A DNA stretch of 64,000 nucleotides from an uncultured Pseudomonadota bacterium (lineage in GTDB: Bacteria; Myxococcota_A; UBA796; JAFGLY01). The position numbers and the translations under genes were made by a program. Location of the stretch: the NCBI GenBank assembly GCA_937912125.1, contig CALDOK010000076.1, positions 1,592 through 65,591 of the forward strand, read 5' to 3'. Within the stretch, counting starts at the first letter, position 1. The number at the start of each line of letters is the position of its first letter. Shown piece by piece: positions 2,203-46,669 of the stretch. Below the pieces are notes generated by a model that did not search any database, was not told where the DNA came from, and saw only the letters and a program-made list of their open reading frames with translations.

Positions 2203-2209
2203 CGCGCGA

Positions 2210-2554: not shown

Positions 2555-2741
2555 GGGAGGGCTCCGCGCGGGTGGCGCCGAGGACCTATGCAAGGCGCGT
2601 TCCAACTACGAAAACCCTGGTCTACCGCCCATCGGGAGCGGCGACAGCGCTCAGGCCGCGGCGGGATCGAGACATGGAGATCGCGGGCTGGAGATCGCGG
2701 TTCAACCTGGAGGGCCTGGCCATGCGGCGCCAGCCCGGCGG

Positions 2742-4031
2742 CTACAGGCTGACCCAGCGAAAGAGGTAGACCTCTCCATAAGGCTCGTAGGGGGAATCCG
2801 AGTGCACGTCCGGCGCACCGACCACGAGATCCCAGCGCAGGGCGTCGTCGGACTCGATGGCCAGCAGCGCGGCACCGAAGCTGTCGTCCGGATGTTGCGC
2901 GCCGATCAAGTGAGCGCTGGCGTCCCCGCCCTCGAGGCCGCCCGCCTCGATGGGGCCGCTGAAGACCCACACCGACCCGTCCCCTCCAGCGGCGAGCTCC
3001 GCCACCCCGTCGCTGTCGAGATCCCCGGTGGTGAGGGCGACGGCGGGCAGGGCGATGGCCGTGGCCGCCTCATCCATGGCAGATCCACCCGCGTCCACGA
3101 GGAGGTACACCGTGGTAGCGGCGCCGTCGTTCCAGGCCACCGCGATGTCTCCACGGCCGTCGCCGTCGAGGTCGTCGCCCGCCACCATGGCCGTGGCATG
3201 GCCCATGGGCGCGGTCCAGGTGGCCTCGGCCGCCGACGCGAGATCGACGTCACCAGCCGCGAAGGAGGTCAAGCGAACCAGGGCCGACGACGCTGGATCG
3301 GCGAGGAGCAGGTCGTTCACTCCGTCGCCGTCGAGATCCGCAGCGGCGATACGCATGCCGGCGGGATCCGCGGCGCTCCAGGTGAGCCCGGGCTCCGGCG
3401 AAGGGCCGACAGGTCCAAAGGCCACCCCGCTGGCGTGGCACAGCTCGTCCACGCCGTTGCCATCCAGGTCCCCGCAGCGCACCCCTGACCACGCGTCCCG
3501 GCCCGCCACCGGCAGGACCCCGGGGTCCGTGACGCTGTGGGAGCCCAGCAGCGGACCGGGAAACAGGTAGGCGGGCTCGGAGAGGTCCGAGTCCCCGGGA
3601 GAAGTGAACGCCAGCAGGTCTGGCTCACCGTCGCCGGTGACATCCCCCGGGAGCACCACCTCGGTGCCGAGGAGGGTGTTTGCGTACCCCCCAGAATCGG
3701 ACACGTAGTCCCCCTCCGCCCGCGCGATGGTACCCCCACTCAGGCTGCCAATGAGCGAATTGATCAGATAGATCGTCGAATTTTCGGTGTCCTCCCAGTA
3801 CTCGCTCCCCCTGCTGGGCCCCCCGATCACCAGGCGCGCGCCCGGTCCGGACGTCAACGAGGCGCCGAGCCTCTGGTCGCAGGTCGCACTCCAAGTGACG
3901 CTCGGGGCGAGATCGGTGATGGGCGAGCCCGTATCTGCTGGCGGACCTGTGTCGGTGGAGGGCGGAGAGCCGCTGTCATCCTCCACCCCACAGCCGACGA
4001 GCAACACGAGCGCGTACATGCAGTCAGTCAT
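2742..4031 (-). CDS. FG-GAP / VCBS-repeat lipoprotein (integrin-alpha-like beta-propeller)
   Basis: Lipoprotein N-terminus MYALVLLVGCG. Repeated motifs GDLDGNGVDEL, ADLDGDGVNDLL, GDDLDGDGRGDIAV and GDLDSDGVAEL are typical FG-GAP repeats. Confidence 0.7.
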   Translation of the reverse strand: MTDCMYALVLLVGCGVEDDSGSPPSTDTGPPADTGSPITDLAPSVTWSATCDQRLGASLTSGPGARLVIGGPSRGSEYWEDTENSTIYLINSLIGSLSGGTIARAEGDYVSDSGGYANTLLGTEVVLPGDVTGDGEPDLLAFTSPGDSDLSEPAYLFPGPLLGSHSVTDPGVLPVAGRDAWSGVRCGDLDGNGVDELCHASGVAFGPVGPSPEPGLTWSAADPAGMRIAAADLDGDGVNDLLLADPASSALVRLTSFAAGDVDLASAAEATWTAPMGHATAMVAGDDLDGDGRGDIAVAWNDGAATTVYLLVDAGGSAMDEAATAIALPAVALTTGDLDSDGVAELAAGGDGSVWVFSGPIEAGGLEGGDASAHLIGAQHPDDSFGAALLAIESDDALRWDLVVGAPDVHSDSPYEPYGEVYLFRWVSL

Positions 4032-4077
4032 CGCTCGATGGTAGCACCATGCTCTGCTATCGCCGAGCGGTGGTTCC

Positions 4078-5919: not shown

Positions 5920-5967
5920 GGGCCTGCTCTATTCCATCGAGCCGGCGCACGATACCATGGCGGCCGG

Positions 5968-7692
5968 ATGTCCCCACTCCCTCCCCCCGTCCCCGCGACC
6001 CAGACCGCCCCCGCCTGGCTGCTGCCCGCGGCCTTCATCGGGCTGCTGGCCCTGGCCGCCTGGTCCTTGGTGTCCACGGGCGGTGAGCCCCTGCTGGCAT
6101 GGCGCGGAGCCGAAGTCTGGGGTCACGCCTGGACCTGGTGGTGGCACGGCGAAGCCCTCCCCGCCTGGCCCGACGGCACCAGCCTGGCCACCGGCGCCGC
6201 CTCCTGGCCTGTCATCGATCCCCTCCCCGCTTTGCTGGGCGCCGGCATCAGCCGCGCCGCTGGGCCGGTCGTCGCCTGGAACGCCATGGCCCTCGCAGGC
6301 ATCGCCGGGGCGTTCGCAGGCGGCAGGTGGCTGTCCCGACGCGTGGGCGGCAGCGGGGCCGTGGGCGGCCTGGTCCTGGCCATGGGGCCCGTGTTCACCG
6401 GCAGCCTGCTGTCGGGCTTGAGCGAAGACCTGGCCATCGGGCTGCTGGCGGTGGCGGTGGGGCTGGTGGTGAAGCCCCCCGCCCTCGGTCCCTCAGCCTC
6501 GGCCACGAGCTGGCGCTGGGCCATCGCCGCGGGCTGCTCCCTGGGGCTGCTGGCCTGGTGTGGCCCCTACCTGGCCTGGCTGGGGGCAGCGACCGCGGTG
6601 GTGGCGGGCCTGACGCACCTGATCCGGGCACCCCGCTCCTGGTCGCGCTGGCTGGTGGCCGGACTCATCGCGGCCGCCCTGGCCGTCCCACCCCTGCTGG
6701 CCCAGGGCGCCCGCGCCATCACCGGGGCAGGACACCGCAGCGGCGTCCACCTGGGCCAGGCCGAGCCCCTGTGGCAGCTCAACCCCTGGGGACAGGCCGA
6801 CCTGCTGTCCTTCCTCACCCCAGGGGCCATCGCCCTTCCGGCCGACGCCGTGATCCGACTCCACCCCACCTACCTGGGGCTGGGGGTGCTGCTGCTGGCC
6901 TCGCTGGCGGGCCGCAGCCGCTGGTGGTGGCTGCTGCTGGCTGCGCTGCTGCTGGCGCCAGGAGAGCAGCTGCACTGGCTGGGCCAGGCCCACGACCTGT
7001 CCAACCCCGCGGCCCTGGCCCTGGACTGGCTCCCGGGGGGAGCGCTGCTGAACCACCACGCCAGGCTGTTCCTGCTCGGACAGGTCGCCCTGGCGGCCCT
7101 GGCGGCCCTGGGTGCCCAGCGGCTGGCGACTCGTCCGCGCTGGCGCCCCAGGCTCGTGCTCCCCTTGGCGGCGCTGCTGGTCATGGTGGACTACGGGCTG
7201 TTGGCCCCGGTGCCATGGCCTCTGCCTGCCGCCCAGGCCCAGAGCCCAGACTTCCTCGGTGAGCTCGGGCCGCTCAACCCCGGGATGTTGCTGTGGCTGC
7301 CAACGGGGGGGCCCGGGCTCTCTCCGCAGCGGCCCCTGCTGGACCAGCGCGCCCACGGCCGGCCGCTGGCGCTGAACCCCAACCGCCCCGGAGCCCCCAC
7401 CTGGCTGCCCCGCAGCCCCCTGGGGGGCTGGCTGGCCGCGCTGGGGCGCACCCCCGGCGCACCCCCGCCCGCCGATCGAGACGTCCAGCCCCTGATCGAC
7501 CACGCGCTGCGCGTGCTGGCCGTGGCCGCCCCCCTCGACCGCGCCGTGGCCGCCCACCTGGGCCCACCCACCGTCCAGGGCCAGGACGGCGCCGCGTGGG
7601 ATCTGAACCTGCTGGCCGGTGAGCTGGCCCCCGCCACCGCCCCCCAAGCCGGTCGCTCCGGGGATATGCTGATCGAGGAGCCACAACCGTGA
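5968..7692 (+). CDS. Paralogous large polytopic membrane protein, family not recognised
   Basis: ATG at 5968, in frame with the 4315..7692 ORF, gives MSPLPPPVPATQTAPAWLLPAAFIGLLALAAW followed by >10 TM segments and a C-terminal soluble domain. The upstream 550 codons of the track ORF are antisense junk. The stop overlaps the GTG start of the next gene. Confidence 0.65.
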   Translation: MSPLPPPVPATQTAPAWLLPAAFIGLLALAAWSLVSTGGEPLLAWRGAEVWGHAWTWWWHGEALPAWPDGTSLATGAASWPVIDPLPALLGAGISRAAGPVVAWNAMALAGIAGAFAGGRWLSRRVGGSGAVGGLVLAMGPVFTGSLLSGLSEDLAIGLLAVAVGLVVKPPALGPSASATSWRWAIAAGCSLGLLAWCGPYLAWLGAATAVVAGLTHLIRAPRSWSRWLVAGLIAAALAVPPLLAQGARAITGAGHRSGVHLGQAEPLWQLNPWGQADLLSFLTPGAIALPADAVIRLHPTYLGLGVLLLASLAGRSRWWWLLLAALLLAPGEQLHWLGQAHDLSNPAALALDWLPGGALLNHHARLFLLGQVALAALAALGAQRLATRPRWRPRLVLPLAALLVMVDYGLLAPVPWPLPAAQAQSPDFLGELGPLNPGMLLWLPTGGPGLSPQRPLLDQRAHGRPLALNPNRPGAPTWLPRSPLGGWLAALGRTPGAPPPADRDVQPLIDHALRVLAVAAPLDRAVAAHLGPPTVQGQDGAAWDLNLLAGELAPATAPQAGRSGDMLIEEPQP

Positions 7693-9509
7693 TCAACGAA
7701 GCCCGCCTCACCGAGATCCTCGACCTGCTCATCGCCCGTGGCGTGATCCACCAGGGTCAGAAGCAGGACGTGCTGAACCGCGGCCGCGAGCAGGCCCGGC
7801 ACATCCTGCTGGACAAGCGCGCCGAGCTACGCCGCCTGCTGGGGCGCCAGCGGGTCAACTACCGCGTCCACGAGATCGAGCTGGTGGCCTCGTTCCGCTT
7901 CCATCGGGGCGATCGGCCCGACGAGCTGGTGGACGAAGAGGTGGTCACCCGGGTGGTGGCCGAGGCCCGTCAGATGCCCTTCGTGCACCTGGACCCCCTG
8001 GCCCTGAACTACAAGCTGGTCACAGAGACCTTCGGCGGCCCCTTCGCCGAGCGCCACATGGTCATCGCCCTCGAGGACACCCCCGAGCTGCTCACCCTGG
8101 CTATGGCCGACCCCTGGGACCAGGAGCTGCTCGACAGCATCGCGCGCTTCAAGAACAAGGCCATCAGCCCCGTAGTGGCCACCAAGTCCGAGATCCTCCA
8201 GGTCATCGTGGAGTTCCACGGTTTCCGCCGCTCCATGCGCGCGGCCGAAGAAGAGTTCCGCTCTGACCTGCCCGATCTGGGCAACCTCGAGCAGCTGTAC
8301 CGCATGAAGGGCGCAGCCGAGCTGGACGCCACCGACCAGCCCGTGGTCCAGGCCGTCTGGTACCTGCTCAACTATGCCTTCGAGAACCGCGCTTCGGACA
8401 TCCACATCGAGCCCAAGCGCGAGGAAGCCCTGGTCCGGATGCGCATCGACGGCGTGCTGCACCGCATCCACCGCCTGCCCAAGCTGGTCCACCCCGCCAT
8501 GGTCAGCCGCGTGAAGATGCTGGCCCGCATGGACATCGCCGAGCGCCGCCGACCGCAGGATGGTCGCTTCAAGACCCACCACGGCGGCGACGAGGTGGAG
8601 ATGCGGGTGAGCACCGTGCCCACCGCCTTCGGCGAGAAGGTGGTCATGCGCATCTTCGACCCGGGCATCTACGTCAAGAACGTAGACTCCATGGGCCTGT
8701 TCCAGCGCGAGCGCATGCTCCTCGAGCGCATGCTCTCCACCAAAGCCGGCATGGTGCTGGTCACCGGCCCCACCGGCAGCGGCAAGACCACCACCCTGTA
8801 CACCGCGCTCCACCACATCAACTCGCCGCGCATCAACATCTGCACCCTCGAAGACCCCATCGAGATCGTGCAAGAAGAGTTCAACCAGTTCCCCGTGCAG
8901 CCCAAGATCGGCTTCACCTTCGCCACGGCCCTGCGCACCGTGCTGCGCCAGGATCCCGACGTGGTCATGCTGGGTGAAATCCGCGATCCCGAGACCGCCG
9001 AACATGCCGTCCAGGCCGCGCTCACCGGCCACCTGGTGCTCAGCACCCTGCACACCAACGACGCCGCCTCGGCGGTCACCCGCCTGCTGGACCTCGACAT
9101 CTACCCCTTCCTGATCGCCTCGGTCCTCCAGGGCGTCATCGCCCAGCGCCTGGTGCGTCGCATCTGCCCCAACTGCGCTGTGGACGAGATCCTGAGCGAG
9201 GATCAGGTGCTCAGCCTGCGCATCGGCGGCGCCCGCGGCCGCAAGCTGGGCGTCAAGCGCGGCGCAGGCTGCATCAAGTGCCGGGGCACCGGCTACCGAG
9301 GCCGCACCGGCGTGTTCGAGGTGCTCCCCATCACCCCCCGCATCGGCAAGCTCATCGCCGATCGAGCCCCCTCGGTGGAGATCAAGAAAGAAGCGCTGAA
9401 CGACGGGATGATGACCCTGCGGGAGTACGCCATCAAGAAGATGGCCATGGGCGAGACCACCTACGAAGAGGTGCTCGCCATGACCGACGAGGTCAACGTC
9501 TACACCTAG
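7689..9509 (+). CDS. GspE/PilB-family secretion ATPase (type II/IV secretion NTPase) with N-terminal T2SSE_N-like domain
   Basis: Walker A VTGPTGSGKTTTL, Asp/His boxes and GEIRDPETAE...LVLSTLHTNDA. C-terminal tetracysteine CPNCAVDE...CIKCRGTGYRGR. GTG start overlapping the upstream stop (GTGA). Confidence 0.9.
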   Translation: MINEARLTEILDLLIARGVIHQGQKQDVLNRGREQARHILLDKRAELRRLLGRQRVNYRVHEIELVASFRFHRGDRPDELVDEEVVTRVVAEARQMPFVHLDPLALNYKLVTETFGGPFAERHMVIALEDTPELLTLAMADPWDQELLDSIARFKNKAISPVVATKSEILQVIVEFHGFRRSMRAAEEEFRSDLPDLGNLEQLYRMKGAAELDATDQPVVQAVWYLLNYAFENRASDIHIEPKREEALVRMRIDGVLHRIHRLPKLVHPAMVSRVKMLARMDIAERRRPQDGRFKTHHGGDEVEMRVSTVPTAFGEKVVMRIFDPGIYVKNVDSMGLFQRERMLLERMLSTKAGMVLVTGPTGSGKTTTLYTALHHINSPRINICTLEDPIEIVQEEFNQFPVQPKIGFTFATALRTVLRQDPDVVMLGEIRDPETAEHAVQAALTGHLVLSTLHTNDAASAVTRLLDLDIYPFLIASVLQGVIAQRLVRRICPNCAVDEILSEDQVLSLRIGGARGRKLGVKRGAGCIKCRGTGYRGRTGVFEVLPITPRIGKLIADRAPSVEIKKEALNDGMMTLREYAIKKMAMGETTYEEVLAMTDEVNVYT

Positions 9510-25848: not shown

Positions 25849-25959
25849 CCCTCGCGCACCGCTGTGGCTGGTGGTCGATGAACGCCCTGCCGCGGCGCGG
25901 AAGGGAGCATGCTGGCTCGTTCTGCTGCTACGATGTCGCTGCCCCCAGCCGAGGCCGCC

Positions 25960-28902
25960 ATGCGCAGCACGTTCCTCCTCTTCATCCTGCTGCTCTCCGC
26001 CTGTCGCAGCGACCCAGACAAGTCTGACACCGGCGCCCTCGACGATGCCTGCGACTGGTACGCCGACGGCGACGGCGACGGCTACGGCGACCCCGAGGTC
26101 ATGGCCAAGGGCCCGTGCGTCGACACCCAGGACGGCTGGGCTGGCAACGCCGAGGACTGCGACGACGACGACGCGGCCATCCATCCCGCCGCCACCGAGG
26201 CCTGCAACGGCTACGACGACGACTGCGACGGCAGCGTGGATGAAGGGCTGCTCACCACCTGGTACGCCGATCTCGACGGGGACGGACACGGCGATCCCGA
26301 CAGCGCGGTCGAGGCCTGCGAGCAGCCACCGGACCATGTCGAGAGCAGCGACGACTGCGACGATGGCGACCCGGACATCCATCCAGGCGCCCCGGAGCGC
26401 TGCGACGGCGTGGATGAGGACTGCGACGGCCTGGTGGACGAAGACCTGCAGACCCGCTGGTACCTGGACAGCGACGGGGATGGCTACGGCGACGCCGAGA
26501 TCGCCATCGACTCCTGCGACCCGGGCGAAGGCTGGGTGGTCGACGCCACGGACTGCGACGACGGCGCCGAGAGCATCCATCCCGAAGCGGACGAGATCTG
26601 CAACGACCTCGACGACGACTGCGACGGCCTGGTGGACGAGGATCTCGAGTCCACCTGGTACGCCGACGACGACGGCGACGGCTACGGCGACCCGGAAACC
26701 GCGGTGGCGGACTGCGCCCCCGGCGCTGGCTGGGTGCAGCCCGCTGCCGGCGAGGACTGCGACGACGCCAACTCGGCCATCAACCCCGCCGCCACCGAAG
26801 CCTGCAACGGCTACGACGACGACTGCGACGGCCTGGTTGACGATCAGGACCCGGGTGTGGCCGACAGCGCCACCTGGTACCTCGATGCCGACGGCGACGG
26901 CTACGGTGACGATGCCGCCAGCCAGCAGGCCTGCGAGCAGCCATCGGGCACCAGCGCCCTGAGCGGCGACTGCGACGACGACGACCCCGCCTACAACCCT
27001 GGCGCCACCGAGGCCGACTGCACGGATCCCAGCGACTACAACTGCGACGGATCGGTGGGCTGGGCCGACGACGATGGAGACGGCTGGGCGGCCTGCGAAG
27101 ACTGCGACGACCGCGACGCGGCGGTCAACCCGGCGGGCGTAGAGCTGTGCAACGGCGTGGACGACGACTGCGACGGATCGGTGGACGAGGACGACGCCAC
27201 CGATGCCGCCACCTGGTACGCCGACGCCGACGGTGACGGCTATGGCGACGCCGACAGCACCACCCTGGCCTGCGCAGCCCCGTCGGGCACCGTGGCCGAC
27301 GCCACCGACTGCGACGACGGCGACGCCGGCGTCAACCCCGCGGCGGCCGAGGCCTGCAACGGCGTCGACGACGACTGCGACGGATCGGTGGACGAGGGCG
27401 TGCTCTCCATCTGGTATGCGGACAGCGACGCCGACGGATACGGCGACGCTGGCGACAGCACCGAGGCCTGCTCTCAGCCCTCGGGCTCCGTCGCCGACGA
27501 CAGCGACTGCGACGATGACGACGGGACGATCAACCCCGCCGCCACCGAGACCTGCGACGGCGCCGACAACGACTGCGACGGTACCGTGGACGAGGCGGAC
27601 GCCAGCGACGCCGCCACCTGGTACCAGGATCACGACGCCGACGGCTTCGGCGATGCCAGCGCCGGCACCATCGCCTGCGACCAACCCTCCGGCGCCGTGG
27701 CGGATGACACGGACTGCGACGACGGCGAAGGCCAGGTCAACCCGGCCGCGGACGAGCTGTGCAACGGCATCGACGACGACTGCGACGGCACCATCGACAC
27801 GGGCGCGGTGGACGAGGCCTCGTGGTACGCCGACACAGACGCCGATGGCTACGGTGACCCCGGCAGCAGCACAGCTGCCTGCACCCAGCCCTCGGGCTCC
27901 GTCGCCGACGACAGCGACTGCGACGACACGGACGCGTCCATCAACCCCGCCGCCACCGAGACCTGCGACGGCGCCGACAACGACTGCGACGGCCACACCG
28001 ACGAGGACGACGCCGCGGACGCGACAGCCTGGTACGCGGACGCCGACAGCGACGGCTTCGGCGACGCCGGCGACAGCGTGACCGCCTGCGCCGCTCCCTC
28101 CAGCTATGTGGGAGACAGCACGGACTGCGACGACGCCGACGGGTCCATCAATCCCGCCGCCACCGAGACCTGCGACGGCGTGGACCAGGACTGCAGCGGC
28201 GCGCTGTCGTGGCTCGAGCAGGACGCTGACGGTGACGGGTACCTGGCCTGCGAGCTGTCCCTGTGGCTGCGCAGCGACGGCTCGATCAACAACGACCCCG
28301 CGACCAGCGGCACCTACGGCTCCAGCGAGGCCGCCGCGCTGCTGGCGGTCGAGGGCATGGACTTCGACACGGCCGACACCGCCGCCACCACGCTCACCGC
28401 CGCCCTGCTGGACAAGTACGGCCTGCTGGTGCTGCACGGCACCGCGGCCTACGGCACGCTGGACGCCAGCGAGAGCGCCGCCCTCGAGGACTGGGTGCGC
28501 GACGGCGGCAGCCTGCTCTACCTGGCCTACCACCCCAGCTCCTACACCTGCGCCATGGTCAACAGCCTGCCTTCCGCCTTCGGGCTCGGCTGCAGCGACT
28601 ACGCGAGCTACTGGAGCGGCTCGGCCACCAGCATCGTCTCCCACGCCGTCACAGCCGACATCTCCACCATCGAGGGCATGGGCGGCGAGCACTGGACCGT
28701 GGCCAGCCCCGCCCAGACCGTCGTGGACCAGGCCGGCTGGCCGGTCGTGGTCGTGCTCGAGCTCGAGGATGGCCGCGTGGTGGGCCTGGCGGACGAGTGG
28801 CCCCTGTACGACAGCGGCACGGGCAGCGCCGACATCAGCCAGGGCGACAACTGGATCCTGCTGGAGAACACCTGGGCCTGGTTGGCTGACTTCGCCCTGT
28901 GA
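25960..28902 (+). CDS. Giant lipoprotein with ~14 tandem Cys-rich Asp-rich repeats (MopE-like metal-binding motif) and a C-terminal alpha/beta domain
   Basis: Internal M gives MRSTFLLFILLLSACRSD (lipobox). Repeat unit WYADxDGDGYGDxxxxxxACxxPxGxVxDxxDCDDxDxxxNPxAxExCNGxDDDCDGxVDE, about 14 copies. The C-terminal ~230 aa are non-repetitive. Confidence 0.8.
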   Translation: MRSTFLLFILLLSACRSDPDKSDTGALDDACDWYADGDGDGYGDPEVMAKGPCVDTQDGWAGNAEDCDDDDAAIHPAATEACNGYDDDCDGSVDEGLLTTWYADLDGDGHGDPDSAVEACEQPPDHVESSDDCDDGDPDIHPGAPERCDGVDEDCDGLVDEDLQTRWYLDSDGDGYGDAEIAIDSCDPGEGWVVDATDCDDGAESIHPEADEICNDLDDDCDGLVDEDLESTWYADDDGDGYGDPETAVADCAPGAGWVQPAAGEDCDDANSAINPAATEACNGYDDDCDGLVDDQDPGVADSATWYLDADGDGYGDDAASQQACEQPSGTSALSGDCDDDDPAYNPGATEADCTDPSDYNCDGSVGWADDDGDGWAACEDCDDRDAAVNPAGVELCNGVDDDCDGSVDEDDATDAATWYADADGDGYGDADSTTLACAAPSGTVADATDCDDGDAGVNPAAAEACNGVDDDCDGSVDEGVLSIWYADSDADGYGDAGDSTEACSQPSGSVADDSDCDDDDGTINPAATETCDGADNDCDGTVDEADASDAATWYQDHDADGFGDASAGTIACDQPSGAVADDTDCDDGEGQVNPAADELCNGIDDDCDGTIDTGAVDEASWYADTDADGYGDPGSSTAACTQPSGSVADDSDCDDTDASINPAATETCDGADNDCDGHTDEDDAADATAWYADADSDGFGDAGDSVTACAAPSSYVGDSTDCDDADGSINPAATETCDGVDQDCSGALSWLEQDADGDGYLACELSLWLRSDGSINNDPATSGTYGSSEAAALLAVEGMDFDTADTAATTLTAALLDKYGLLVLHGTAAYGTLDASESAALEDWVRDGGSLLYLAYHPSSYTCAMVNSLPSAFGLGCSDYASYWSGSATSIVSHAVTADISTIEGMGGEHWTVASPAQTVVDQAGWPVVVVLELEDGRVVGLADEWPLYDSGTGSADISQGDNWILLENTWAWLADFAL

Positions 28903-28941: not shown

Positions 28942-30210
28942 TCAGCCCGCCAGCAGCTCCCGATACTCCTGGATGGCCGCCTCCTGGGCCTCGAGTCGAA
29001 CCCGGTCCAGCTCCCCTTGGTGGCTGCGCGCGAGCTTGACCAGGCGGGGGTCCAGCGCTCCCTGCTGGGCCATGTCCCCCAGGATGTCCAGGGCTCTCTC
29101 CGTACCCATGCCATCGCGGTAGGGACGATCCTCGGTCAGGGCCACGAACACGTCGGCCACGGCCATGATGCGGGACCCCATGCTGATGTCCCTGCCGCCG
29201 ATGTGGAAGGGATACCCCCTGCCATCGAGCCGCTCGTGGTGGTAGGCCGCCCACTCGGCGATCACCTCGAAGTCCCGGATGGGCCGCAGTGCCCGCCAGG
29301 TGGAGTAGGTGTGGCTGCGTATGAGGTTGAACTCGGCCTCGCTCAGCTTGGCGGGCTTCTCGAGCACCTCGGCGGGCACCGCCAGCTTGCCCAGATCGTG
29401 CAGCAGGCCCGCGGCCCGCATCAGCGCCTGCTCGCGGGGGCTGAAGCCTGCGTGGCGCGCCAGGAACTCCGCGGTGGCCGCCACCCCCGCCGAGTGGGAG
29501 GCGGTGAAGCGCGACCTGAAGTCGATGAGCCGCGCGAAGAACGCCGCCAGCTCGAACACCCCCTGCATGTCGAGCTCGACGGCCTCGTCACCCAGCCGAC
29601 GACGGATCTCGCCGCCCAGGGTCGGGGAGACCAGGTCGAGCCACAGGGATTCCTGACGCGCCAAGGCTTCGAAGGTTTCCACCAGCCCAGGGTGGAACAG
29701 TCGCCCCGCCTCCCCCCGGATCCGCGCGGCGATCCCGGCGACCTGCCCCAGGACCTCCGCGCCCCGGTCCACCAGCACAGCGATGCGGTCGGCCAGGTGC
29801 AGGATGTGCGCCTCGATGGGCTCGTCACCCGGCGCCGAGCGGTGCCCCCACACCGCATGGTGGCCGCCTACGATGGGGGCCAGGTCACTCAGCAGCGAGA
29901 AGGTTCCGAGCAGGCGAGCACCCATCCGCGCGTGGTCCTGGAGCCCCTCCGCCTCGAACTCCAGCACCCCCAGGCGCTCGCTGACGGTCATACCGCCCAG
30001 ATCGTGCAGAGCCCCCGCCACGATGCAAGTGCGCTGACGCTCCCGCCCGAGCCCGTGGGCTTCGGCGATGCGAGCGGCCAGGTAGGCCACCTGCTTGTGG
30101 TGGTTGCTCAGCGCAGGGCTGACCATGTCCACCGTGTCGGAGATGCACATGATGAGATCGAAGGTCGAGATTCGGTAAGAGCGCAGCATCGTCCAACAGT
30201 CCTCCCACAA
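28942..30210 (-). CDS. Tandem HD / HD-GYP domain protein (putative c-di-GMP phosphodiesterase or sensor)
   Basis: Two HD modules: ...HHKQVAYLAARIAEAHGL...GALHDLG... and ...HSAGVAATAEFLARHAGF...LLHDLGKLAVP...HHERLDGRGYP (HD-GYP signature). True start may be an internal M (aa 8, 21 or 29). Confidence 0.85.
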   Translation of the reverse strand: MWEDCWTMLRSYRISTFDLIMCISDTVDMVSPALSNHHKQVAYLAARIAEAHGLGRERQRTCIVAGALHDLGGMTVSERLGVLEFEAEGLQDHARMGARLLGTFSLLSDLAPIVGGHHAVWGHRSAPGDEPIEAHILHLADRIAVLVDRGAEVLGQVAGIAARIRGEAGRLFHPGLVETFEALARQESLWLDLVSPTLGGEIRRRLGDEAVELDMQGVFELAAFFARLIDFRSRFTASHSAGVAATAEFLARHAGFSPREQALMRAAGLLHDLGKLAVPAEVLEKPAKLSEAEFNLIRSHTYSTWRALRPIRDFEVIAEWAAYHHERLDGRGYPFHIGGRDISMGSRIMAVADVFVALTEDRPYRDGMGTERALDILGDMAQQGALDPRLVKLARSHQGELDRVRLEAQEAAIQEYRELLAG

Positions 30211-32873: not shown

Positions 32874-33317
32874 ATGTCCCGCATCGCCTTCCTCGCCGTC
32901 AGCACCCTCGCCCTGACCCTCACCATCGCCGGCTGCGAGCTGGGCGGCGAGGGTCCCAGCTCGGGCGCCTTCACCATCATCACCGGCGACTGCGAGGGCG
33001 ACGGCTACGGCAAGGACATGGACACCGGCTCGCCCGACCCCACGGCCGTCTGGGCCGAGGCCGACGGCCGCGACGCCGTCCTGCACCTGGACAACCTGCT
33101 GGCCAACTGCTGCCCCAGCGCCGACGCCACCGTCACCATCGACGGCACGGACATCCTGGTGGAGTTCGAAGACGTGACCACCGAGGACCCCTGCGACTGC
33201 ATGTGCGTGACGGACTTCCTGATCACCATCGAAGATCTCGACCCGGGCGCCTACACCATCGAGGTGGACTACGACGGCAGCATCATCGGCGACGCCGAGG
33301 TGGAGATCGAGGCATAG
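32874..33317 (+). CDS. Small hypothetical lipoprotein
   Basis: Internal M gives MSRIAFLAVSTLALTLTIAGC (lipobox). Acidic Cys-containing body (CEGDGYG, CDCMC). Confidence 0.55.
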   Translation: MSRIAFLAVSTLALTLTIAGCELGGEGPSSGAFTIITGDCEGDGYGKDMDTGSPDPTAVWAEADGRDAVLHLDNLLANCCPSADATVTIDGTDILVEFEDVTTEDPCDCMCVTDFLITIEDLDPGAYTIEVDYDGSIIGDAEVEIEA

Positions 33318-33463: not shown

Positions 33464-34633
33464 GTGACCCGGGTCCCGACCCGAGCATCCCGAGCCATCC
33501 GTTGCCGCCTCCTGGGCAGCGCCGGTTTCTGCCCAGGGGGCGCCTTGACCAAACCTCCACCCCTCTTGGACACGCCCTTCCCCCAGTCCCCTGAGGACAC
33601 CCAGCGGGAAACTGCCCTGCGCGACCTCATCAAGCTGGGCGCCGTGGCCTCCTACCTGGGCAGGGGCGAGCACCCACGGCGCGTCCTGGGCTTGGCGCTG
33701 GGCATGGTGCTGGATCTGACGGGGGGCACCACCGTGGCGTTGCTGGTGGATGACCGGGTGCTGGAGGCGCTGGCCAGCCCCCTCGAGCGCAGCCTGGGCC
33801 AGATGGACTTCGGGGAGCGCAGCCGCCTGGTGGCCCGCGGCCCCGTGGCCGATCGGATCCGTGACTGGGAGGGCTCGAGCGCGCCGGTGCTGTCACTCGA
33901 GGGCGCCGACCTCGTGATCCCGGGCTCCGGCGGCGGGCTCGAGGTGCAGGAGCCCGACTGCGGCGCGCTGGGGGAACCCGGGCGCGTGGTCCTGCTGCAC
34001 ACCCTCACCGATCTGTGTACCGGCTTGGCCATGCTGGCGGCCAAGCAGGTGGAGTCCGAGCAGCGAGCGCGCGCCCTGGTGGAGACCCGCGCACGCTTCC
34101 GGGAGCAAAACCTGCTGCTGCGTGAGCTGGCCGTGGTGGACGAGCTGACGGGCCTGTACAACCGCCGCTTCTTCGACGGGCGCCTGCAGTATGAGCTCGA
34201 CCGCCTGGGGCGCTACGGCTCTCCCCTGTCCCTGTTGGTGATGGACATCGATCACTTCAAGGCGGTCAACGATCAGCACGGCCACCCGGTGGGCGACGAG
34301 GTGCTGCGGCAGCTGGCCAGCCGCTGCAAGGCCATGATCCGCCGCGTGGATCTGCTGGCCAGGATCGGCGGCGAGGAGTTCGCGCTGCTGATGCCATGCA
34401 CTGGCGGCGAGGGTGCCATGGCGGTGGCGGGCCGCTTGCTGGCCACCGTCGCCAGCCCGCCCTTCGCCCTGGGCGAACTGGCCCTTCCGCTGACCATCTC
34501 CATCGGCCTGGCGACCGTCGCCGGGGGCTGGCAGGGTGACGCCGCTCAGATCTTCCGCGCCGCGGACCAGGCGTTGTACCGCGCCAAGCTCGACGGGCGA
34601 AATCGCGTCGTGGTAGCTATGAAGACAGCATGA
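33464..34633 (+). CDS. Diguanylate cyclase (GGDEF) with N-terminal GAF-like sensory domain
   Basis: C-terminal VDELTGLYNRRFFDGRL...LLVMDIDHFKAVNDQHGHPVGDEVL...RIGGEEFALLMP. Start uncertain (GTG 33464 or TTG 33566), with no in-frame ATG before the domain. Confidence 0.75.
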   Translation: MTRVPTRASRAIRCRLLGSAGFCPGGALTKPPPLLDTPFPQSPEDTQRETALRDLIKLGAVASYLGRGEHPRRVLGLALGMVLDLTGGTTVALLVDDRVLEALASPLERSLGQMDFGERSRLVARGPVADRIRDWEGSSAPVLSLEGADLVIPGSGGGLEVQEPDCGALGEPGRVVLLHTLTDLCTGLAMLAAKQVESEQRARALVETRARFREQNLLLRELAVVDELTGLYNRRFFDGRLQYELDRLGRYGSPLSLLVMDIDHFKAVNDQHGHPVGDEVLRQLASRCKAMIRRVDLLARIGGEEFALLMPCTGGEGAMAVAGRLLATVASPPFALGELALPLTISIGLATVAGGWQGDAAQIFRAADQALYRAKLDGRNRVVVAMKTA

Positions 34634-35490
34634 GCACCTCCGACGGATTCAGCGACAAGGTCATCGGCGCCCGCCTGGCGCGGGCGGATGATCTGGGCGT
34701 GTTCCCTCCAGCTGCGGTCCGCATCCTGAGGGTGGTGGACGATCCGCGCACCAACCTCGTGGACCTCGAGAAGGCCGTCTCCATGGACCCGGTGCTCACA
34801 GCCCAGGTCCTCAAGGTCGCCAACTCGGCCTACTTCGGGCTGGCCCGCACTGTGGGCAGCCTGCGCCAGGCGCTGTTCGTGCTGGGCTTCCGCACCGTGC
34901 GCTCGATGGCCCTGTCCCTGGCGGCGATGACCATGGGCGCCACCGAGGGCCCCTGGCGGCGCAGGGTCTGGCGCCGCAGCATCCGCACCTGCCACGCCAT
35001 GCGCCACCTGGGCACCCACGTGGACTGGGACGACTACGCCGAGCCCTTCGCTGTAGGCCTGCTCCACAAGATCGGCATGCTGCTGCTGCTGGTGCTCGAG
35101 GAGAAGACCTACGTCGACATGCTCGAGCGGATGCGCTGGGGCTCCCCCGAGCTGCTCGAGAAAGAGGCCCACTTCTTCGGCTTCGACCACATCCTGCTCG
35201 GCGCGGCCTGCCTCGAGCGCTGGAACCTGCCCGAGGAAGTCTGCCTGGCGGTCCGCCATCAAGAAAACCCCGACGCCCTGGCCGGCCAGGATGACCCCCA
35301 GCTGCTCGCCAGGATGCTGTGGATCGCTACGCGCATGGAGCGTCGCCTTTCCACCCAGGAAGGCGCCGACACCATCGCGGTGGCCCTGGCCGCCACCCCC
35401 GTGGCCCAGCAGATGGGCCTGAGCGTCGCCGTGTTGACCAACATCGCCGTGGCGGTCCGTCGCGAAGACGACGACATGTTCTCGCTGTAG
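34630..35490 (+). CDS. HDOD domain signalling protein
   Basis: FPPAAVRILRVVDDPRTNLVDLEKAVSMDPVLTAQVLKVANSAYFGL...LLHKIGMLLL. ATGA overlap with the GGDEF gene stop. Confidence 0.8.
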   Translation: MSTSDGFSDKVIGARLARADDLGVFPPAAVRILRVVDDPRTNLVDLEKAVSMDPVLTAQVLKVANSAYFGLARTVGSLRQALFVLGFRTVRSMALSLAAMTMGATEGPWRRRVWRRSIRTCHAMRHLGTHVDWDDYAEPFAVGLLHKIGMLLLLVLEEKTYVDMLERMRWGSPELLEKEAHFFGFDHILLGAACLERWNLPEEVCLAVRHQENPDALAGQDDPQLLARMLWIATRMERRLSTQEGADTIAVALAATPVAQQMGLSVAVLTNIAVAVRREDDDMFSL

Positions 35491-35588
35491 GGACGGCCAG
35501 AGGCCAGGGGTAGGGCTCCCACTCGTGGGCGCTGACCCAAGAAACTCGAAGTATGCTTCCTCATGCAAACGACCTGAGAGGAGGACGC

Positions 35589-36878
<1,290 letters not shown>

Positions 36879-36881
36879 TTC

Positions 36882-37271
36882 ATGGCCGCCCCCACCCTGC
36901 GCTTCATCAGCCTCTTCGTGCCCGAGCTCGAGGCCACCGCCGCCCGCTACACCGCCTTCCTGGGCGTTTCGCCGGTGCTGGACGACCCCGACGTACCCCG
37001 GGACCACCCCTACGCTGCAGGCCCGCCCCTGGTCTTCCCCCTGGGCCAGGTCAAGCTGGCGCTGTACCCCTGCGACGACCGCATCACCCACCCGGGCGAC
37101 GTGGCCCTGGGCCTGCACGCCGACGATCTCCCCGCCGTCATGGGCGCCGCCGAGGGGGCTGGTGCCAAGCTCTTTCCCCGCCGACCACCCATCGGCGACG
37201 GCCGCGAGCTGGGGGTCTTCGTGCTCCCCGACAAGCACTACTTCGAGGTGCTGGGTCCGAAGAGCGGCTAG
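36882..37271 (+). CDS. VOC (glyoxalase/bleomycin-resistance/dioxygenase) family protein
   Basis: 129 aa starting 4 nt after the radical SAM stop. LRFISLFVPELEATAARYTAFLGV...YFEVL pattern of the betaalphabetabetabeta VOC fold. Confidence 0.6.
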   Translation: MAAPTLRFISLFVPELEATAARYTAFLGVSPVLDDPDVPRDHPYAAGPPLVFPLGQVKLALYPCDDRITHPGDVALGLHADDLPAVMGAAEGAGAKLFPRRPPIGDGRELGVFVLPDKHYFEVLGPKSG

Positions 37272-38296
37272 CCGAACACCCCGTGCAGCGGCCGCCCGCA
37301 GCGGGCGCAGGCCGCGCCGTTCATCCTCCGCTCCCCCAGCTGGTAGCCCGCCCGCTCGATCAGCCGCTCCCCGCAGCCCGCACAGAAGGTGCTGGAGGCC
37401 TCGGGGTCGTAGACATTGCCCAGGTAGACGTGGTGCAGGCCGTGCTGCTGGGCGATGGTCCGGGCACGCTGCTGGGTGGCGTGGGGGGTGCGGGGTCTGT
37501 CGAGGAGCTTGTGGGCGGGGTGGAAGGCGCTGAAGTGTACGGGGACCTCAGGGCCCAGCTCCCCGGCAACGAAGGCGCACAGCGCCTCCAGCTCCGTGTC
37601 GCTGTCGTTCTCGCCCGGGATCAGCAGCGTGGTGAGCTCCAGCAGGATCGGCGTCTCCCGAGCCAGGTAGCGCAGGGTGTCCAGCACCGGGTCCAGCCGG
37701 GCTCCGCAGAGCCGCCGGTAGAACGAGTCTGAGAAGGACTTCAGATCGATGTTGGCTGCATCCATCACCCCGAAGAACGCCTCGCGGGGGCCCGGGCTGA
37801 CGTAGCCGGCGCTCACAGCCACCGCGCGAACCCCAGCCTCGCGACAAGCCAGAGCGGTGTCGATGGCGTACTCGGCGAAGATCAGCGGCTCGTTGTAGGT
37901 GAACGCCACCGACTCACAGCGCTCCCCGCCCGCCAGCCGAGCGATCTGCTCTGGGCTGGCGTGGGCCTGGGCCCGGTCGGCGCTGCGGGCCCTGGACAGA
38001 TCCCAGTTCTGGCAGAAGCGGCAGCCCAGGTTGCAGCCCGCGGTGCCGAACGAGAGCACGCGGCTGCCCGGCAGGAAGTGGTACAGTGGCTTCTTCTCGA
38101 TGGGATCCACCGCGAAGCCGCTCGAGCGGCCATAGGTGTCCAGCACCAGGCCGTCCTCGTCCGCCAGCCGCACGTAGCAGTAGCCTCGCTGGCCCGACTC
38201 GAGCTCGCAGGCCCGCGGGCACAGCTCACAACGAAAGCGGGACAGGGCGCCCGGTACGCGGCTCCACCAGCGCGCGGGATGGGGAGAGGAACCCAT
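37268..38296 (-). CDS. Radical SAM enzyme of the PFL-activase-like / AmmeMemoRadiSam family
   Basis: CELCPRACEL...GYCYVR N-terminal region. TAGCNLGCRFCQNW (CxxxCxxC). ...HVYLGNVYD...TFCAGCGERLIERAGY and C-terminal CARCGRPLHGVFG, typical of the TIGR04337-like family. Confidence 0.75.
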   Translation of the reverse strand: MGSSPHPARWWSRVPGALSRFRCELCPRACELESGQRGYCYVRLADEDGLVLDTYGRSSGFAVDPIEKKPLYHFLPGSRVLSFGTAGCNLGCRFCQNWDLSRARSADRAQAHASPEQIARLAGGERCESVAFTYNEPLIFAEYAIDTALACREAGVRAVAVSAGYVSPGPREAFFGVMDAANIDLKSFSDSFYRRLCGARLDPVLDTLRYLARETPILLELTTLLIPGENDSDTELEALCAFVAGELGPEVPVHFSAFHPAHKLLDRPRTPHATQQRARTIAQQHGLHHVYLGNVYDPEASSTFCAGCGERLIERAGYQLGERRMNGAACARCGRPLHGVFG

Positions 38297-44092: not shown

Positions 44093-46669
44093 CTATCGCG
44101 GCAGGCAGGGCTCGCCGGGCGCCTCGTCCGGAGCTTCATGGACGGGCTCCTCCTCGTCGTCCACGTAGCCCAGCGCCCTGAGAGCCTCGACGCTCTCGGG
44201 ATCGAAGCCGCCCAGCTCTCGGCCGTCGGCCGGAGGCTCGGGGGCCACGCCGTAGCTCAGGCTCACGCGGGTACCCGAGCCCTTGGTGTTCAGCAGACGC
44301 TGGGTGCGACCGTTGGTCACGGGCGCTTCGTCCTGGGGGTCCCAGCGATCGCTGCTGCACTCCTTGCCGCGCCGGGCCTCGAGCGTGAGCCCCACCAGGG
44401 CCTCGGCCACCGAAACGCTGGGTGCCACGAAGACCTCGCGGGTGCCGGGCATGCCCCCCGCCCAGGTGGCGGTGACGGTGGCGCCATCGACGCTCACGGT
44501 GGCCGCGGACTTCTCGGTGGGGTCCGCCCCGACCCAGGCCGCCTTCACGCCGCCGGGCACGGTCAAGGTGACCTCCAAGGGCTTGCTGCCGGAGCCACGC
44601 TCGGGCCGCAAGCGGAAGCCCAGGTCCACACCGCGGTCCAAAGAGCTCCCCATGGCGACACGGCGCCCGGCCAAGACGCCGTCTTCGGATCGCCGGGCGA
44701 GGTCTTCCTGCTCGCCGGGATCGGCGCCGAGGTCGTAGAGCTCCTCCTTGCCTGCGCTGGTGCTGTACTTGAGATCGCCCTCGAGCACGCCCCACTGCTC
44801 GTCTCCGTACAGGGGCCGGCCGAAGCCGTGCAGGCGATCGTCGAAGGCGCGGACCGCCTCGGCGTCTCCCCGGGCCAGGGGCAGCAGAGACAGGCCCGTG
44901 ATGCCAGCGTCACCTGGGATCCCCAGCTGCTCGAGCAGGGTGGGAGTCACGTCCATCAGGCTGACAGTCTGCTCCACTCGGCCCGCCGCCAAGCCTGGTG
45001 CCCGGATGACCAGGGGCACCGCCAGCAGCTCCTCGTAGACCGAGTGGCCGTGCTCGAAGCCCTTGTGGTCCCAGAACTCCTCGCCGTGGTCGGAGAACAC
45101 CACCGCCACGTCCCGGGGGCCCAGCTCCTCCAGCACCCGCGCGATCTGATCGTCCACGTAGCGGATGGCTCCATCGTAGCGGTCGATGACGTACTGACGC
45201 GCCCGCTCCTTGTCCTTGCCCTTGGCAGCGCCGAGCACGTCGTTGCGCAGGAAGGAACCGCTCAGCCCTTCCGGCGGCGAGCCGGCCCAGAGCTTCTTGT
45301 AGCGACGGGGCTCGGTGTAGGGCAGGTGAGTGTCCATCAGGTGGAGCATGACCATGGCGGGCTGGTCGGGGTGCTCGTCCAGCCAGGCCTCGAGCCGCTC
45401 GACCTGATCGGTGGCCCGAGGCCAGTTCTCCACGAAGTGGTGGCTCCAGCCGTCGGCCATCTCGAAGTTCGCGCTCAGATAGACGTTGCCCACGAACGCC
45501 GCGCTGACCCAGCCGGCGTCGCCCAGGCGCTCGGGCAGCGAAGCGCGGCCACCCCAGAACTCGGGCTGAGCGCCAAGCAGCAAGGCGCGAGCCGAGGGCA
45601 GGGTCCACGGCGCCGTGGAGCGAGCCGCGTCGAAGACCACGGCATCCTGCGACCACTCCGTGAGCCGCGGCATGGTGTCCCGGGAGTAGTCGTACAGCTC
45701 GAGGTGGTCTCGGCGCAGCGTGTCGACGAAGACCAGCACCACCCGCGGCGGGTCCACCTGGGGGGTGTACAGGGTGGGCTCGCCCACGAAGACGTAGTCG
45801 TATGTGGACGTGACGCCGGGCTCGGAGATCAGGCTCAGCTCCACCTGCTGGCCGGCCCAAGGCGCCAGATCGGCCCGGACGGTGTCGAACACGCCGGGCT
45901 CGAGCTCGAAACGGTCCACCAGCTGCGGCTCGCCGCCACCGGCGGTCACCTGCACCACGAGCCGGGCACCGTCGCTGGGGGCCAGGTCTGCCACCTCGGG
46001 CAGCAGCATCCCCAGCTCCATGGACAGCTTGCCTTCCGCGGGCACCGTGACCGACCAGGACGCCGAGCCGGGCGCTGGGAGCAGCACGCCGTGGCGCTCG
46101 ACATGTCCCTGCCAGGCCGAGCGGAGCAGAAAGTCCTCTTCGCCTTCGCGCTCGGCCCAGGCCCGGTTCAGGTCTCGCTCCCTGTCGCTGGCCCGGGGGT
46201 AGATCAGCTCGAAGTCACCTGCGACGGGGGGCCCATCAGCCTCGAGGTGCACCTGCAGGGTGCGCGCCGCGAACGACCAGGTGGCGTCCTGGGGGTCTTG
46301 CCGCGATCCACGCCGAAACTTGTACTCGTCCTGCTCGCCGCCCAGGTGCAGGCTCATGCCGTCTGGGGGGTGGATGAAGAACAGGGAGCGAAGCCGGATG
46401 GGCAGCTCGGCCTCGAAGCTGTGGACGCCGTCGGTGGTGCGCCGCAGCATGAACGGCCCACGCACCGGGATTCGATCGGGCACGGGGACCCCGTCTCGGC
46501 TGTCGCTGGGCAGCTGGACAGTGGTCAGCAGCTCGGGGTGACGCGCCAGCAGCACCGGAGCCGGGCCCATGGGGGCATCGATGGGCGCCTGAACGAGGTC
46601 GGATGCACACCCGACCGCCAGGAGCCCCACGGTGAGGGGCAGGAGGCGCGACATGACAACCCGGGACAC
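44093..46669 (-). CDS. Sulfatase-like hydrolase/transferase (alkaline-phosphatase superfamily) lipoprotein with large N-terminal extension
   Basis: MSRLLPLTVGLLAVGCAS lipobox. Central VVLVFVDTLRRDHL...STAPWTLPSARALLLG...HLMDTHLPY...DHGEEFWDHKGFEHGHSVYEE matches the sulfatase/AP-superfamily core but with T-L-P-S-A-R in place of C-x-P-x-R. Confidence 0.7.
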   Translation of the reverse strand: MSRVVMSRLLPLTVGLLAVGCASDLVQAPIDAPMGPAPVLLARHPELLTTVQLPSDSRDGVPVPDRIPVRGPFMLRRTTDGVHSFEAELPIRLRSLFFIHPPDGMSLHLGGEQDEYKFRRGSRQDPQDATWSFAARTLQVHLEADGPPVAGDFELIYPRASDRERDLNRAWAEREGEEDFLLRSAWQGHVERHGVLLPAPGSASWSVTVPAEGKLSMELGMLLPEVADLAPSDGARLVVQVTAGGGEPQLVDRFELEPGVFDTVRADLAPWAGQQVELSLISEPGVTSTYDYVFVGEPTLYTPQVDPPRVVLVFVDTLRRDHLELYDYSRDTMPRLTEWSQDAVVFDAARSTAPWTLPSARALLLGAQPEFWGGRASLPERLGDAGWVSAAFVGNVYLSANFEMADGWSHHFVENWPRATDQVERLEAWLDEHPDQPAMVMLHLMDTHLPYTEPRRYKKLWAGSPPEGLSGSFLRNDVLGAAKGKDKERARQYVIDRYDGAIRYVDDQIARVLEELGPRDVAVVFSDHGEEFWDHKGFEHGHSVYEELLAVPLVIRAPGLAAGRVEQTVSLMDVTPTLLEQLGIPGDAGITGLSLLPLARGDAEAVRAFDDRLHGFGRPLYGDEQWGVLEGDLKYSTSAGKEELYDLGADPGEQEDLARRSEDGVLAGRRVAMGSSLDRGVDLGFRLRPERGSGSKPLEVTLTVPGGVKAAWVGADPTEKSAATVSVDGATVTATWAGGMPGTREVFVAPSVSVAEALVGLTLEARRGKECSSDRWDPQDEAPVTNGRTQRLLNTKGSGTRVSLSYGVAPEPPADGRELGGFDPESVEALRALGYVDDEEEPVHEAPDEAPGEPCLPR

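Follow-up and report, generated by a model that had tools for sequence, protein, structure and literature searches.

Radical S-adenosylmethionine (SAM) enzymes with a SPASM domain are a main source of new peptide chemistry, and such maturases are usually found through an adjacent small precursor gene. In a 64-kb stretch of contig CALDOK010000076.1 from an uncultured bacterium of the Myxococcota_A lineage (64,000 nucleotides, hereafter the window), a radical-SAM/SPASM gene stands without one. A first reading of the letters alone (the sequence-only reading) had joined this gene to four neighbours, encoding GGDEF, HDOD, vicinal oxygen chelate (VOC)-fold and AmmeMemoRadiSam proteins, as a candidate modification locus, and had seen no small precursor gene in the gaps. 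A gap scan for short open reading frames (ORFs) likewise gave nothing plausible, nor did a scan of all six frames of the window with the leader hidden Markov model (HMM) and motif described below. On which substrate, then, does the enzyme act? On balance, we favour the reading that its 429-aa product is a maturase of the type acting on peptides that are ribosomally synthesized and then modified post-translationally (RiPPs), fused in cis to its substrate, and that its family targets a Tyr-centred motif in acidic lipoprotein precursors. The missing substrate is probably the enzyme's own tail, the fused counterpart of a separate leader-bearing lipoprotein. Positions given here are those of the whole window, and residues are numbered in the 441-aa frame (ATG 35553) unless the 429-aa protein is stated.

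The enzyme gene most likely starts at ATG 35589, since GGAGGA lies about 6 nt upstream and public gene calls give 429 aa, and with this start the gap to the HDOD gene is 98 nt. The identical 429-aa protein is present in four independent aquatic metagenome assemblies. Its radical-SAM and SPASM identity holds, as both Pfam models score above gathering: Radical_SAM (PF04055) reaches 88 bits against a cutoff of 29.5, and SPASM (PF13186) 35.8 bits against 21.5. The CX3CX2C motif is nearly invariant in the homologue alignment (A1), the seven SPASM cysteines are invariant across 37 homologues, and the enzyme core is modelled by AlphaFold with a predicted local distance difference test score (pLDDT) above 90. 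No RiPP recognition element (RRE) domain is fused to the enzyme.

When the enzyme was classified with NCBIfam (release 20), 59 models matched, and the best matches among the 25 highest-scoring ones were RiPP maturases, none of which reached its cutoff. This agrees with the earlier proposal of a peptide- or protein-modifying rather than a housekeeping type. With the model TIGR04103 (nif11-class peptide radical SAM maturase 3; cutoff 725), the window enzyme scores 261.5 bits and its tail-less relatives score 280-311, and no Nif11-type precursor is present. TIGR03913 (GDL-motif-peptide-associated maturase) gives 251 bits (cutoff 591.75), the mycofactocin maturase MftC model 130 (cutoff 265), and the PqqE model (TIGR02109) 109.8 (cutoff 381). 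TIGR04133 (rSAM_w_lipo), with a cutoff of 425, gives 128.5 bits for the window enzyme, where it ranks fifth or sixth, and 158-183 for the tail-less relatives, where it ranks third. Because all these scores are far under the cutoffs, the enzyme falls outside every curated family. Among solved structures, PqqE, SkfB, SuiB, the anaerobic sulfatase-maturating enzyme (anSME) and ChlB come closest, at 15-24% identity, with PqqE first by sequence (E=2.5e-21) and also in the Foldseek ranking.

Behind the SPASM domain, the protein carries the hydrophobic segment and acidic (DS)9 C-terminus that had been pointed out as unusual: a helix predicted by AlphaFold at residues 372-386, Cys392, and an acidic tail. 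After the last SPASM cysteine the sequence runs ...SLRSSVVAAALGVMVGAAIPGC and then GDKDDTAPPADTYEADA(DS)9DAYDIEIQRVIEEI. The segment starting at about residue 372 of 441 contains R373, 16 hydrophobic residues and then I-P-G-C. Measured against the criteria for lipoprotein signals (basic n-region, h-region of 10-20 aa, lipobox [LVI][ASTVI][GAS]C), I-P-G-C is lipobox-like, and the signal of the fused clade is internal, not N-terminal as in standard lipoprotein precursors. The tail itself is modelled as disordered (pLDDT below 50), and its DAYDIE is a candidate subclade version of the Y-x-x-P motif of the family. Neither a conserved in-frame start nor a Shine-Dalgarno sequence precedes the signal segment, which indicates that enzyme and tail are translated as one polypeptide. 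A separate nested gene for the tail was also considered, and was rejected, since the fused homologues L010 and L011 are without any candidate start codon. The (GACAGC)9 tract encoding (DS)9 is slippage-prone in principle, and its copy number is the same in the four independent assemblies.

The same architecture recurs widely. Scanning of GTDB species representatives gave 277 relatives of the SPASM enzyme, from which the best 80 loci, nearly all in Myxococcota/Polyangia-type metagenome-assembled genomes (MAGs), were kept for neighbourhood work, and the tails of the 120 best homologues were compared. More than 60 homologues share the order enzyme, signal, tail. Tails longer than 45 aa are present in 72 homologues, and in 68 of these basic residues and a hydrophobic stretch lead up to a Cys. 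A, G or S stands directly before this Cys in 64 of the 68 tails, which reads as the signature of the -1 position of a lipobox. After the Cys, the tails consist of 23% Asp and 13.5% Thr, and 229 of their 328 Tyr residues (70%) have Pro at +3 or +4, with the consensus [DE]-Y-G-[IM]-P-D. Most members of the family have Y-[G/M/A/D]-[I/V/M/A]-P, and the subclade of the window has D-[AG]-Y-D-[IVLT], present in one to six copies per protein (L001, L003, L009, L081, P0001-P0006 and P0004/8/11/12/19) and in one copy in the window. In distant fused forms (P0062, P0079-P0093, L025 and L050) the hydrophobic-Cys junction is the same, and different, Cys-rich repeats of the type Y-G-x-P-P follow it. In one fused subclade (L008:10001-11446, P0033 and P0038), the tails end instead of Y-x-x-P repeats in a small Cys-containing module (…VTVY[AM]FCMEAGK…CGGPDCFRVKL…).

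Tail-less enzymes of 350-395 aa account for 57 of the 80 loci, and at least 42 of these 57 have an adjacent partner gene, 41 within 600 bp and one (L037) about 4.7 kb off. Partners were detected by motif density in 32 loci and by the leader HMM in 10 further loci, and their orientation varies (upstream on the same strand, divergent or convergent). Most are lipoprotein precursors of 100-530 aa. They begin with an N-terminal leader helix of about 20-30 aa, M-S-E-x-E-[IM]-R-x-x-L-x-x-V-C-x-x-L-D, followed by basic residues, a hydrophobic stretch and a mostly canonical lipobox L-x-[GAS]-C (L-A-G-C, L-G-G-C, L-V-S-C). The remainder is an acidic region and then 2-13 Tyr motifs such as PPYMAPD and KYG[IV]PxE, with Pro at +3 or +4 behind 140 of 186 Tyr residues. 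In some partners the motif alternates with NF033662 "acidic double-disulfide repeats" (236 bits), implying that these proteins are exported to where conditions are oxidising. Apart from NF033662, no NCBIfam peptide model matched a partner at E<=0.1, the leader and the non-Cys partners being unmatched, and Pfam gave no match for the partners. Tandem arrays of two to four leader-lipoprotein partner genes are found in L072:3666-8267, L037:6400-10146 and L024:11091-12020.

The leader HMM (alignment A2) matches with E values of 1e-20 to 1e-7, in every case beside a tail-less enzyme, and has no match in the fused-clade loci L001-L020 and L066, in L025, in L050, or in the window. This distribution indicates that leader and fusion are mutually exclusive. 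A search of 5.8 billion proteins with a 28-sequence leader alignment returned nothing at E<=0.001, the model being too short for a database of this size. In a rough neighbour-joining tree at least two switches between fused and unfused states are needed; fusion or fission thus appears to have happened repeatedly, with at least two changes. Single-linkage clustering of the enzymes against motif flavour was uninformative, as all merge at 58% identity, and a correlation of C-terminal enzyme signatures with partner type was seen by eye only. Some MAGs (e.g. JBNLED, JAFGQN, JBDRKM and CAYVQL) hold two or three fused paralogues, or fused and unfused systems together.

A third format is found in a Nannocystaceae MAG (L053, span 1-4440), where a fused ABC transporter is followed by two small ORFs and an enzyme of the same family. 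The two small precursors have a common leader (M..RIKREKEAILAFKTNLKAG) and lack a signal peptide, and their cores repeat (P)LYG[IV]. This layout looks like a classical RiPP cluster and points independently to the target motif. The small precursors, the lipoprotein partners and the fused tails all share a Tyr with a small residue behind it and an aliphatic one after that.

Taken together, this Myxococcota SPASM family is genetically locked to Tyr-motif proteins; in the clade of the window, enzyme and partner are joined in one reading frame, export signal included, and the docking leader has been lost exactly upon fusion. We infer from this pattern that the tail is the substrate and that Tyr is the modified site. 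In the window clade, covalent attachment would replace the leader helix, with the signal, lipobox Cys, linker and motif following the SPASM domain. The cytoplasmic Fe-S enzyme would fold first, the tail would leave the ribosome last, and its Tyr would be modified by 5'-deoxyadenosyl-radical chemistry, most plausibly with a cross-link of the Tyr side chain that spans the Y-x-x unit. This leading guess is made by analogy with the aromatic-X-X motifs of the radical-SAM cyclophane synthases, with WGK-type links and with PqqE. The internal signal segment would then insert N-in/C-out with translocation of the acidic tail, and Lgt and LspA would act at Cys392, releasing the modified acidic peptide (about 49 aa) with a lipid anchor. 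The VOC-fold protein of this subclade may act on the product or an intermediate, as a tailoring enzyme, or bind either of them.

The separate partners bear on the timing. Their canonical lipobox would cut the leader from the repeats, so that contact with the enzyme would be transient and pre-export, as expected for a substrate. Modification before export would follow the logic of anSME and the sulfatases and of QhpD and QhpC, where modification takes place in the cytoplasm and the protein is then exported to the periplasm. All-against-all clustering of the neighbours in the 80 loci showed nothing recurring except the Tyr-motif lipoprotein, and in particular no protease, transporter or RRE protein, which fits export by the general Sec/Lol machinery. 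It is possible, and we put it forward tentatively, that the maturase serves as its own substrate's "leader", modifying the Tyr motifs of its tail, which the internal lipoprotein signal exports and Lgt and LspA cut and lipidate, and that the result is a new class of ribosomal product.

Several points weigh against the fused-substrate reading. In the fused clade, positions -3 and -2 of the lipobox are degenerate (T-Q-A-C, I-P-G-C), and we know of no precedent for LspA processing a signal that lies inside a protein, over 360 residues away from its N-terminus. The window tail is minimal, with two Tyr residues, neither of them followed by Pro, and AYDIE fits the consensus of the subclade only. No partner was detected in 15 of the 57 tail-less loci, some of which have short flanks. 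The AlphaFold model of the full fusion shows no docking of the tail on the enzyme, which is uninformative with a disordered tail. A radical-SAM enzyme that modifies itself in a single turnover would be costly to make. Gene fusion is a sign of functional coupling, not of an enzyme-substrate relation, and every step of the mechanism is deduced from sequence and structure prediction.

There is some room for a different role of the tail, as an uncleaved transmembrane anchor with a periplasmic cation-binding or sensing appendage, the substrate of the enzyme being encoded elsewhere; in the unfused relatives, the N-terminal helix of the partner would only recruit the enzyme to the membrane. We consider this unlikely, while granting that it is the strongest of the alternatives. 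Fusion and fission prove association and not catalysis on the partner, the positive-inside pattern (basic before the helix, acidic after it) fits a stable N-in/C-out topology, the modelled tail does not dock, and D/T/S-rich tails resemble generic myxobacterial linkers. However, a small residue and Cys in 64 of 68 tails and canonical lipoboxes in the partners point to cleavage, which would destroy a permanent tether. Besides acidity and some Cys-rich repeats, the exported part keeps a short Tyr motif, which is also the core of the signal-less precursors in the Nannocystaceae cluster, and no alternative conserved substrate gene lies near any of the 80 loci.

The gene directly behind the enzyme bears on two further alternatives. 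Its product matches Pfam Glyoxalase_4 with 17.5 bits, under the gathering threshold of 27. However, among the top 50 Foldseek matches of its AlphaFold model (pLDDT 80) in the PDB, 49 are VOC-type (E 1e-7 to 1e-5, TM 0.6-0.72), the lone other entry being bleomycin N-acetyltransferase. The assignment to the VOC fold, proposed earlier together with its position immediately after the enzyme gene, thus holds despite the sub-gathering Pfam score. The family has only 6 members among 5.8 billion proteins, with residues H42, H70, H119 and E122 invariant. The VOC gene lies directly 3' of this enzyme subclade in all three contexts (the window, L001, which is the closest relative at 68% identity, and L081), and the flanks otherwise differ. 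Since the VOC gene is kept while the flanks differ, the co-occurrence of the two genes across genomes is real but confined to one clade, the closest subclade. In L081, a ThiF/JAB/Peptidase_M48/UBC-like set, a cassette of the prokaryotic ubiquitin-like conjugation type, lies beside the pair (4489-8080, minus strand); it is absent from the window.

The dedicated VOC-fold partner of this subclade would suit a tail that is the precursor of a small cofactor or metabolite in the manner of PQQ or mycofactocin, its Tyr motif being cross-linked or decarboxylated and excised, with the VOC protein as a tailoring step and a product that is not a lipoprotein. The position of PqqE as the closest solved structure and sequence and the 130 bits with the mycofactocin maturase model point in the same direction, as does the invariant Tyr, which is the invariant residue of PqqA and MftA as well. 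We nevertheless regard this explanation as improbable. The scores are far under the cutoffs (PqqE 110 versus 381, MftC 130 versus 265), and the VOC gene is known from only about 6 sequences. In the 80 loci, neither PqqB/C/D/F- or MftB/D/E-like genes nor a conserved protease were found near the enzyme, and no pqq genes were found among the neighbours in the window or in these loci. Moreover, partners that have lipoboxes, disulfide-rich modules and as many as 13 repeats resemble structural exported proteins and not sacrificial precursors.

The locus as first drawn, in which the GGDEF, HDOD, SPASM, VOC and AmmeMemoRadiSam genes form one c-di-GMP-controlled modification locus with its precursor elsewhere or in a tiny ORF, now seems very improbable. 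The same-strand genes are tightly spaced (an ATGA overlap, the 98-nt gap and a 3-nt gap), and 4 assemblies of this organism agree in gene order. A promoter and terminator scan found no sigma-70-like sites and no plus-strand terminator between the genes, although such a scan is uninformative at the GC content of this region, about 70%. Against this, neither the GGDEF, HDOD and AmmeMemoRadiSam genes nor the two TldD/PmbA-like genes, the SPFH gene and the small lipoprotein gene of the window lie beside the enzyme in any of the 80 related loci. When all window neighbours were compared with these loci by tblastn and blastp, only the VOC gene was found, and in L001 only. Gene order is thus not conserved for any gene of the proposed locus except VOC, whose pairing is kept. 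The closest relatives L001 and L081 keep the enzyme-VOC pair alone with wholly different flanks, no small ORF with the family leader or motif occurs anywhere in the window, and AmmeMemoRadiSam is a distinct, widely distributed family (TIGR04337). The five-gene model therefore appears largely refuted by the comparative data, and the c-di-GMP genes and the second radical-SAM enzyme look like bystanders.

That the enzyme is a housekeeping anSME for a PF00884/SGSH_C "sulfatase"-family protein encoded about 7 kb downstream (44093-46669, minus strand) has next to no probability and is effectively refuted: anSME structures are among the Foldseek matches (E ~1e-13), but the supposed target, the only PF00884 protein nearby, carries Thr as the residue at the nucleophile site (VDTLRRDH) and lacks C/S-x-P-x-R, a sulfatase-family gene lies beside the enzyme in only 1 of the 80 loci, identity to anSMEcpe is 15-17% with no anSME model among the 25 best NCBIfam matches, and we know of no anSME with a signal-plus-tail extension.

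Returning to the fused maturase and substrate, the nearest known systems share parts of the arrangement. The cyclophane or triceptide synthases, WgkB, StrB/SuiB and PqqE have the same fold and the full SPASM cysteine set of the window enzyme, and their substrates have a leader and repeated 3-4-residue motifs centred on an aromatic residue, as do Y-G-[IVM] and LYG[IV] here, including the leader/core pair of the Nannocystaceae cluster. Radical-SAM cyclophane synthases are described as forming C-C, C-N and C-O cross-links (PMC11499958). Unlike the RiPP radical-SAM maturases, the present family scores far under every cutoff and has no fused RRE and no recurring RRE-like neighbour; its substrates would mostly be not small secreted peptides but lipoprotein precursors (100-530 aa), and that of the window would be fused behind an internal signal. 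The anSME and QhpD enzymes, of related fold (anSMEcpe is among the matches), resemble the proposal in that a Sec-type protein is modified first and exported later. However, they target C/S-x-P-x-R or form Cys-Asp/Glu thioethers, whereas here the target would be Tyr-x-x-Pro and the partner a lipoprotein, and we know of no anSME or QhpD fused to its own substrate.

In Bacteroidota, the uncharacterised TIGR04133/TIGR04134 radical-SAM/lipoprotein system pairs a SPASM enzyme with a predicted lipoprotein, as here; it differs in phylum and score (cutoff 425), the likeness is one of gene pairing, and no enzyme-lipoprotein fusion is known to us in it. Borosins of the OphMA type, in which an N-methyltransferase is fused to its own C-terminal core and acts autocatalytically, give fungal or bacterial cytoplasmic products released by protease. 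They likewise have enzyme and C-terminal substrate in one polypeptide and need no leader, but the enzyme is a SAM-dependent N-methyltransferase and there is no signal peptide between enzyme and core. In Bradyrhizobium, the cytochrome b-c1 polyprotein FbcH is cut at an internal signal peptide by signal peptidase I into two respiratory subunits. As proposed here, its internal signal exports the downstream part and one ORF gives two products; the differences are the peptidase, since the junction described here is lipobox-like (signal peptidase II), and the products, which here would be an enzyme and a putative product.

A full-text literature search found no description of this enzyme family. RiPP-type radical-SAM/SPASM maturases are already known, and what appears new, judging from sequence, is the substrate class and the fusion of enzyme, signal and substrate. 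The family would present one enzyme type whose substrates come in three formats, as small precursors, as lipoproteins with a leader, and fused to the enzyme behind an export signal. If our reading is correct, it would involve a new Tyr-directed modification, and lipoproteins, not secreted peptides alone, could be RiPP-like substrates. The window protein would be the first substrate-fused radical-SAM RiPP enzyme, and its internal lipobox the first to serve for release. One ORF would give both an enzyme left spent in the membrane and an acidic, cross-linked peptide anchored by lipid to the envelope. Separate Y-x-x-P lipoproteins would bear the same mark, making this a widespread envelope modification of Myxococcota. 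Since in many genomes the paralogues number two or three, and partners reach 13 repeats, it would also offer a testable handle on myxobacterial envelope biology. Genome-mining tools that need a separate precursor ORF would miss such systems.

Table 1. Features of the window around the fused enzyme, and the genes of the Nannocystaceae cluster L053 (positions in that locus)
Feature	Position	Strand	Remarks
GGDEF gene	33545-34633	+	362 aa in public call; Pfam 150 bits; GGEEF and RxxD I-site
HDOD gene	34630-35490	+	Pfam 165 bits
Fusion protein gene	35589-36878	+	429 aa (441 aa from upstream ATG 35553); order maturase, lipoprotein-type signal, acidic Tyr-motif tail
CX3CX2C motif (CDLRCRHC; C30, C34, C37)	35640-35663	+	residues 30-37; predicted to hold the radical-SAM [4Fe-4S] cluster
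SPASM domain	36321-36611	+	C257, C275, C324, C327, C333, C337, C353; two auxiliary Fe-S clusters predicted
Signal-peptide-like segment L372-C392 (LRSSVVAAALGVMVGAAIPGC)	36666-36728	+	one basic residue, hydrophobic helix, lipobox-like I-P-G-C
Acidic tail G393-I441, GDKDDTAPPADTYEADA(DS)9DAYDIEIQRVIEEI	36729-36875	+	49 aa; putative fused substrate and prospective mature lipopeptide
(GACAGC)9 repeat encoding (DS)9	36780-36833	+	acidic linker, flexible; perfect hexanucleotide repeat
D-A-Y-D-I-E motif (Tyr430; Tyr418 in 429-aa numbering)	36834-36851	+	candidate modification site
VOC-fold protein gene	36882-37271	+	129 aa; starts 3 nt after the stop of the enzyme gene
AmmeMemoRadiSam gene	37268-38296	-	TIGR04337 513.8 bits, cutoff 220
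L053 fused ABC transporter	3-2651
L053 small precursor	2815-3009
L053 small precursor	3058-3261
L053 enzyme	3340-4440

As to the neighbouring genes, the positions given by the sequence-only reading stand, apart from three corrections, namely the start of the enzyme gene, the start of the GGDEF gene, and the GAF domain. The supposed GAF-GGDEF protein keeps its GGDEF part and loses the GAF part, since its N-terminal 195 aa match no Pfam domain, GAF included, even at E<=10. The HDOD gene follows on the same strand through the predicted ATGA overlap (34630-34633). The AmmeMemoRadiSam gene is convergent with the VOC-fold gene, with a 4-nt overlap; it was said to lack its usual partners, and indeed no AMMECR1 or Memo Pfam match is found within 10 kb on either side.

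Divergent from the AmmeMemoRadiSam gene are two tandem overlapping genes for TldD/PmbA-like proteins (PF19289; 38418-40115 and 40112-41878, plus strand), which carry N-terminal signal peptides and so are predicted to be exported; they are not kept beside the SPASM enzyme elsewhere. The PF00884 protein is an 858-aa lipoprotein and probably a phosphoryl- or other transferase or hydrolase, not a formylglycine sulfatase. Just upstream of the GGDEF gene lies a gene for a 147-aa acidic Cys-rich lipoprotein with CDCMC and NCC motifs (32874-33317, plus strand), which is unmatched in Pfam and NCBIfam and does not recur in the related loci. Further upstream, a 997-aa lipoprotein (25909-28902, plus strand) contains about a dozen MopE-type Cys/Asp-rich "Cu-binding" repeats (PF11617) and then a C-terminal DUF4350-like region, and is unrelated to the Y-x-x-P partners. 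Finally, a tandem-HD HD-GYP protein is encoded at 28942-30210 on the minus strand, which together with the GGDEF and HDOD genes makes three c-di-GMP-related genes in about 6.5 kb.

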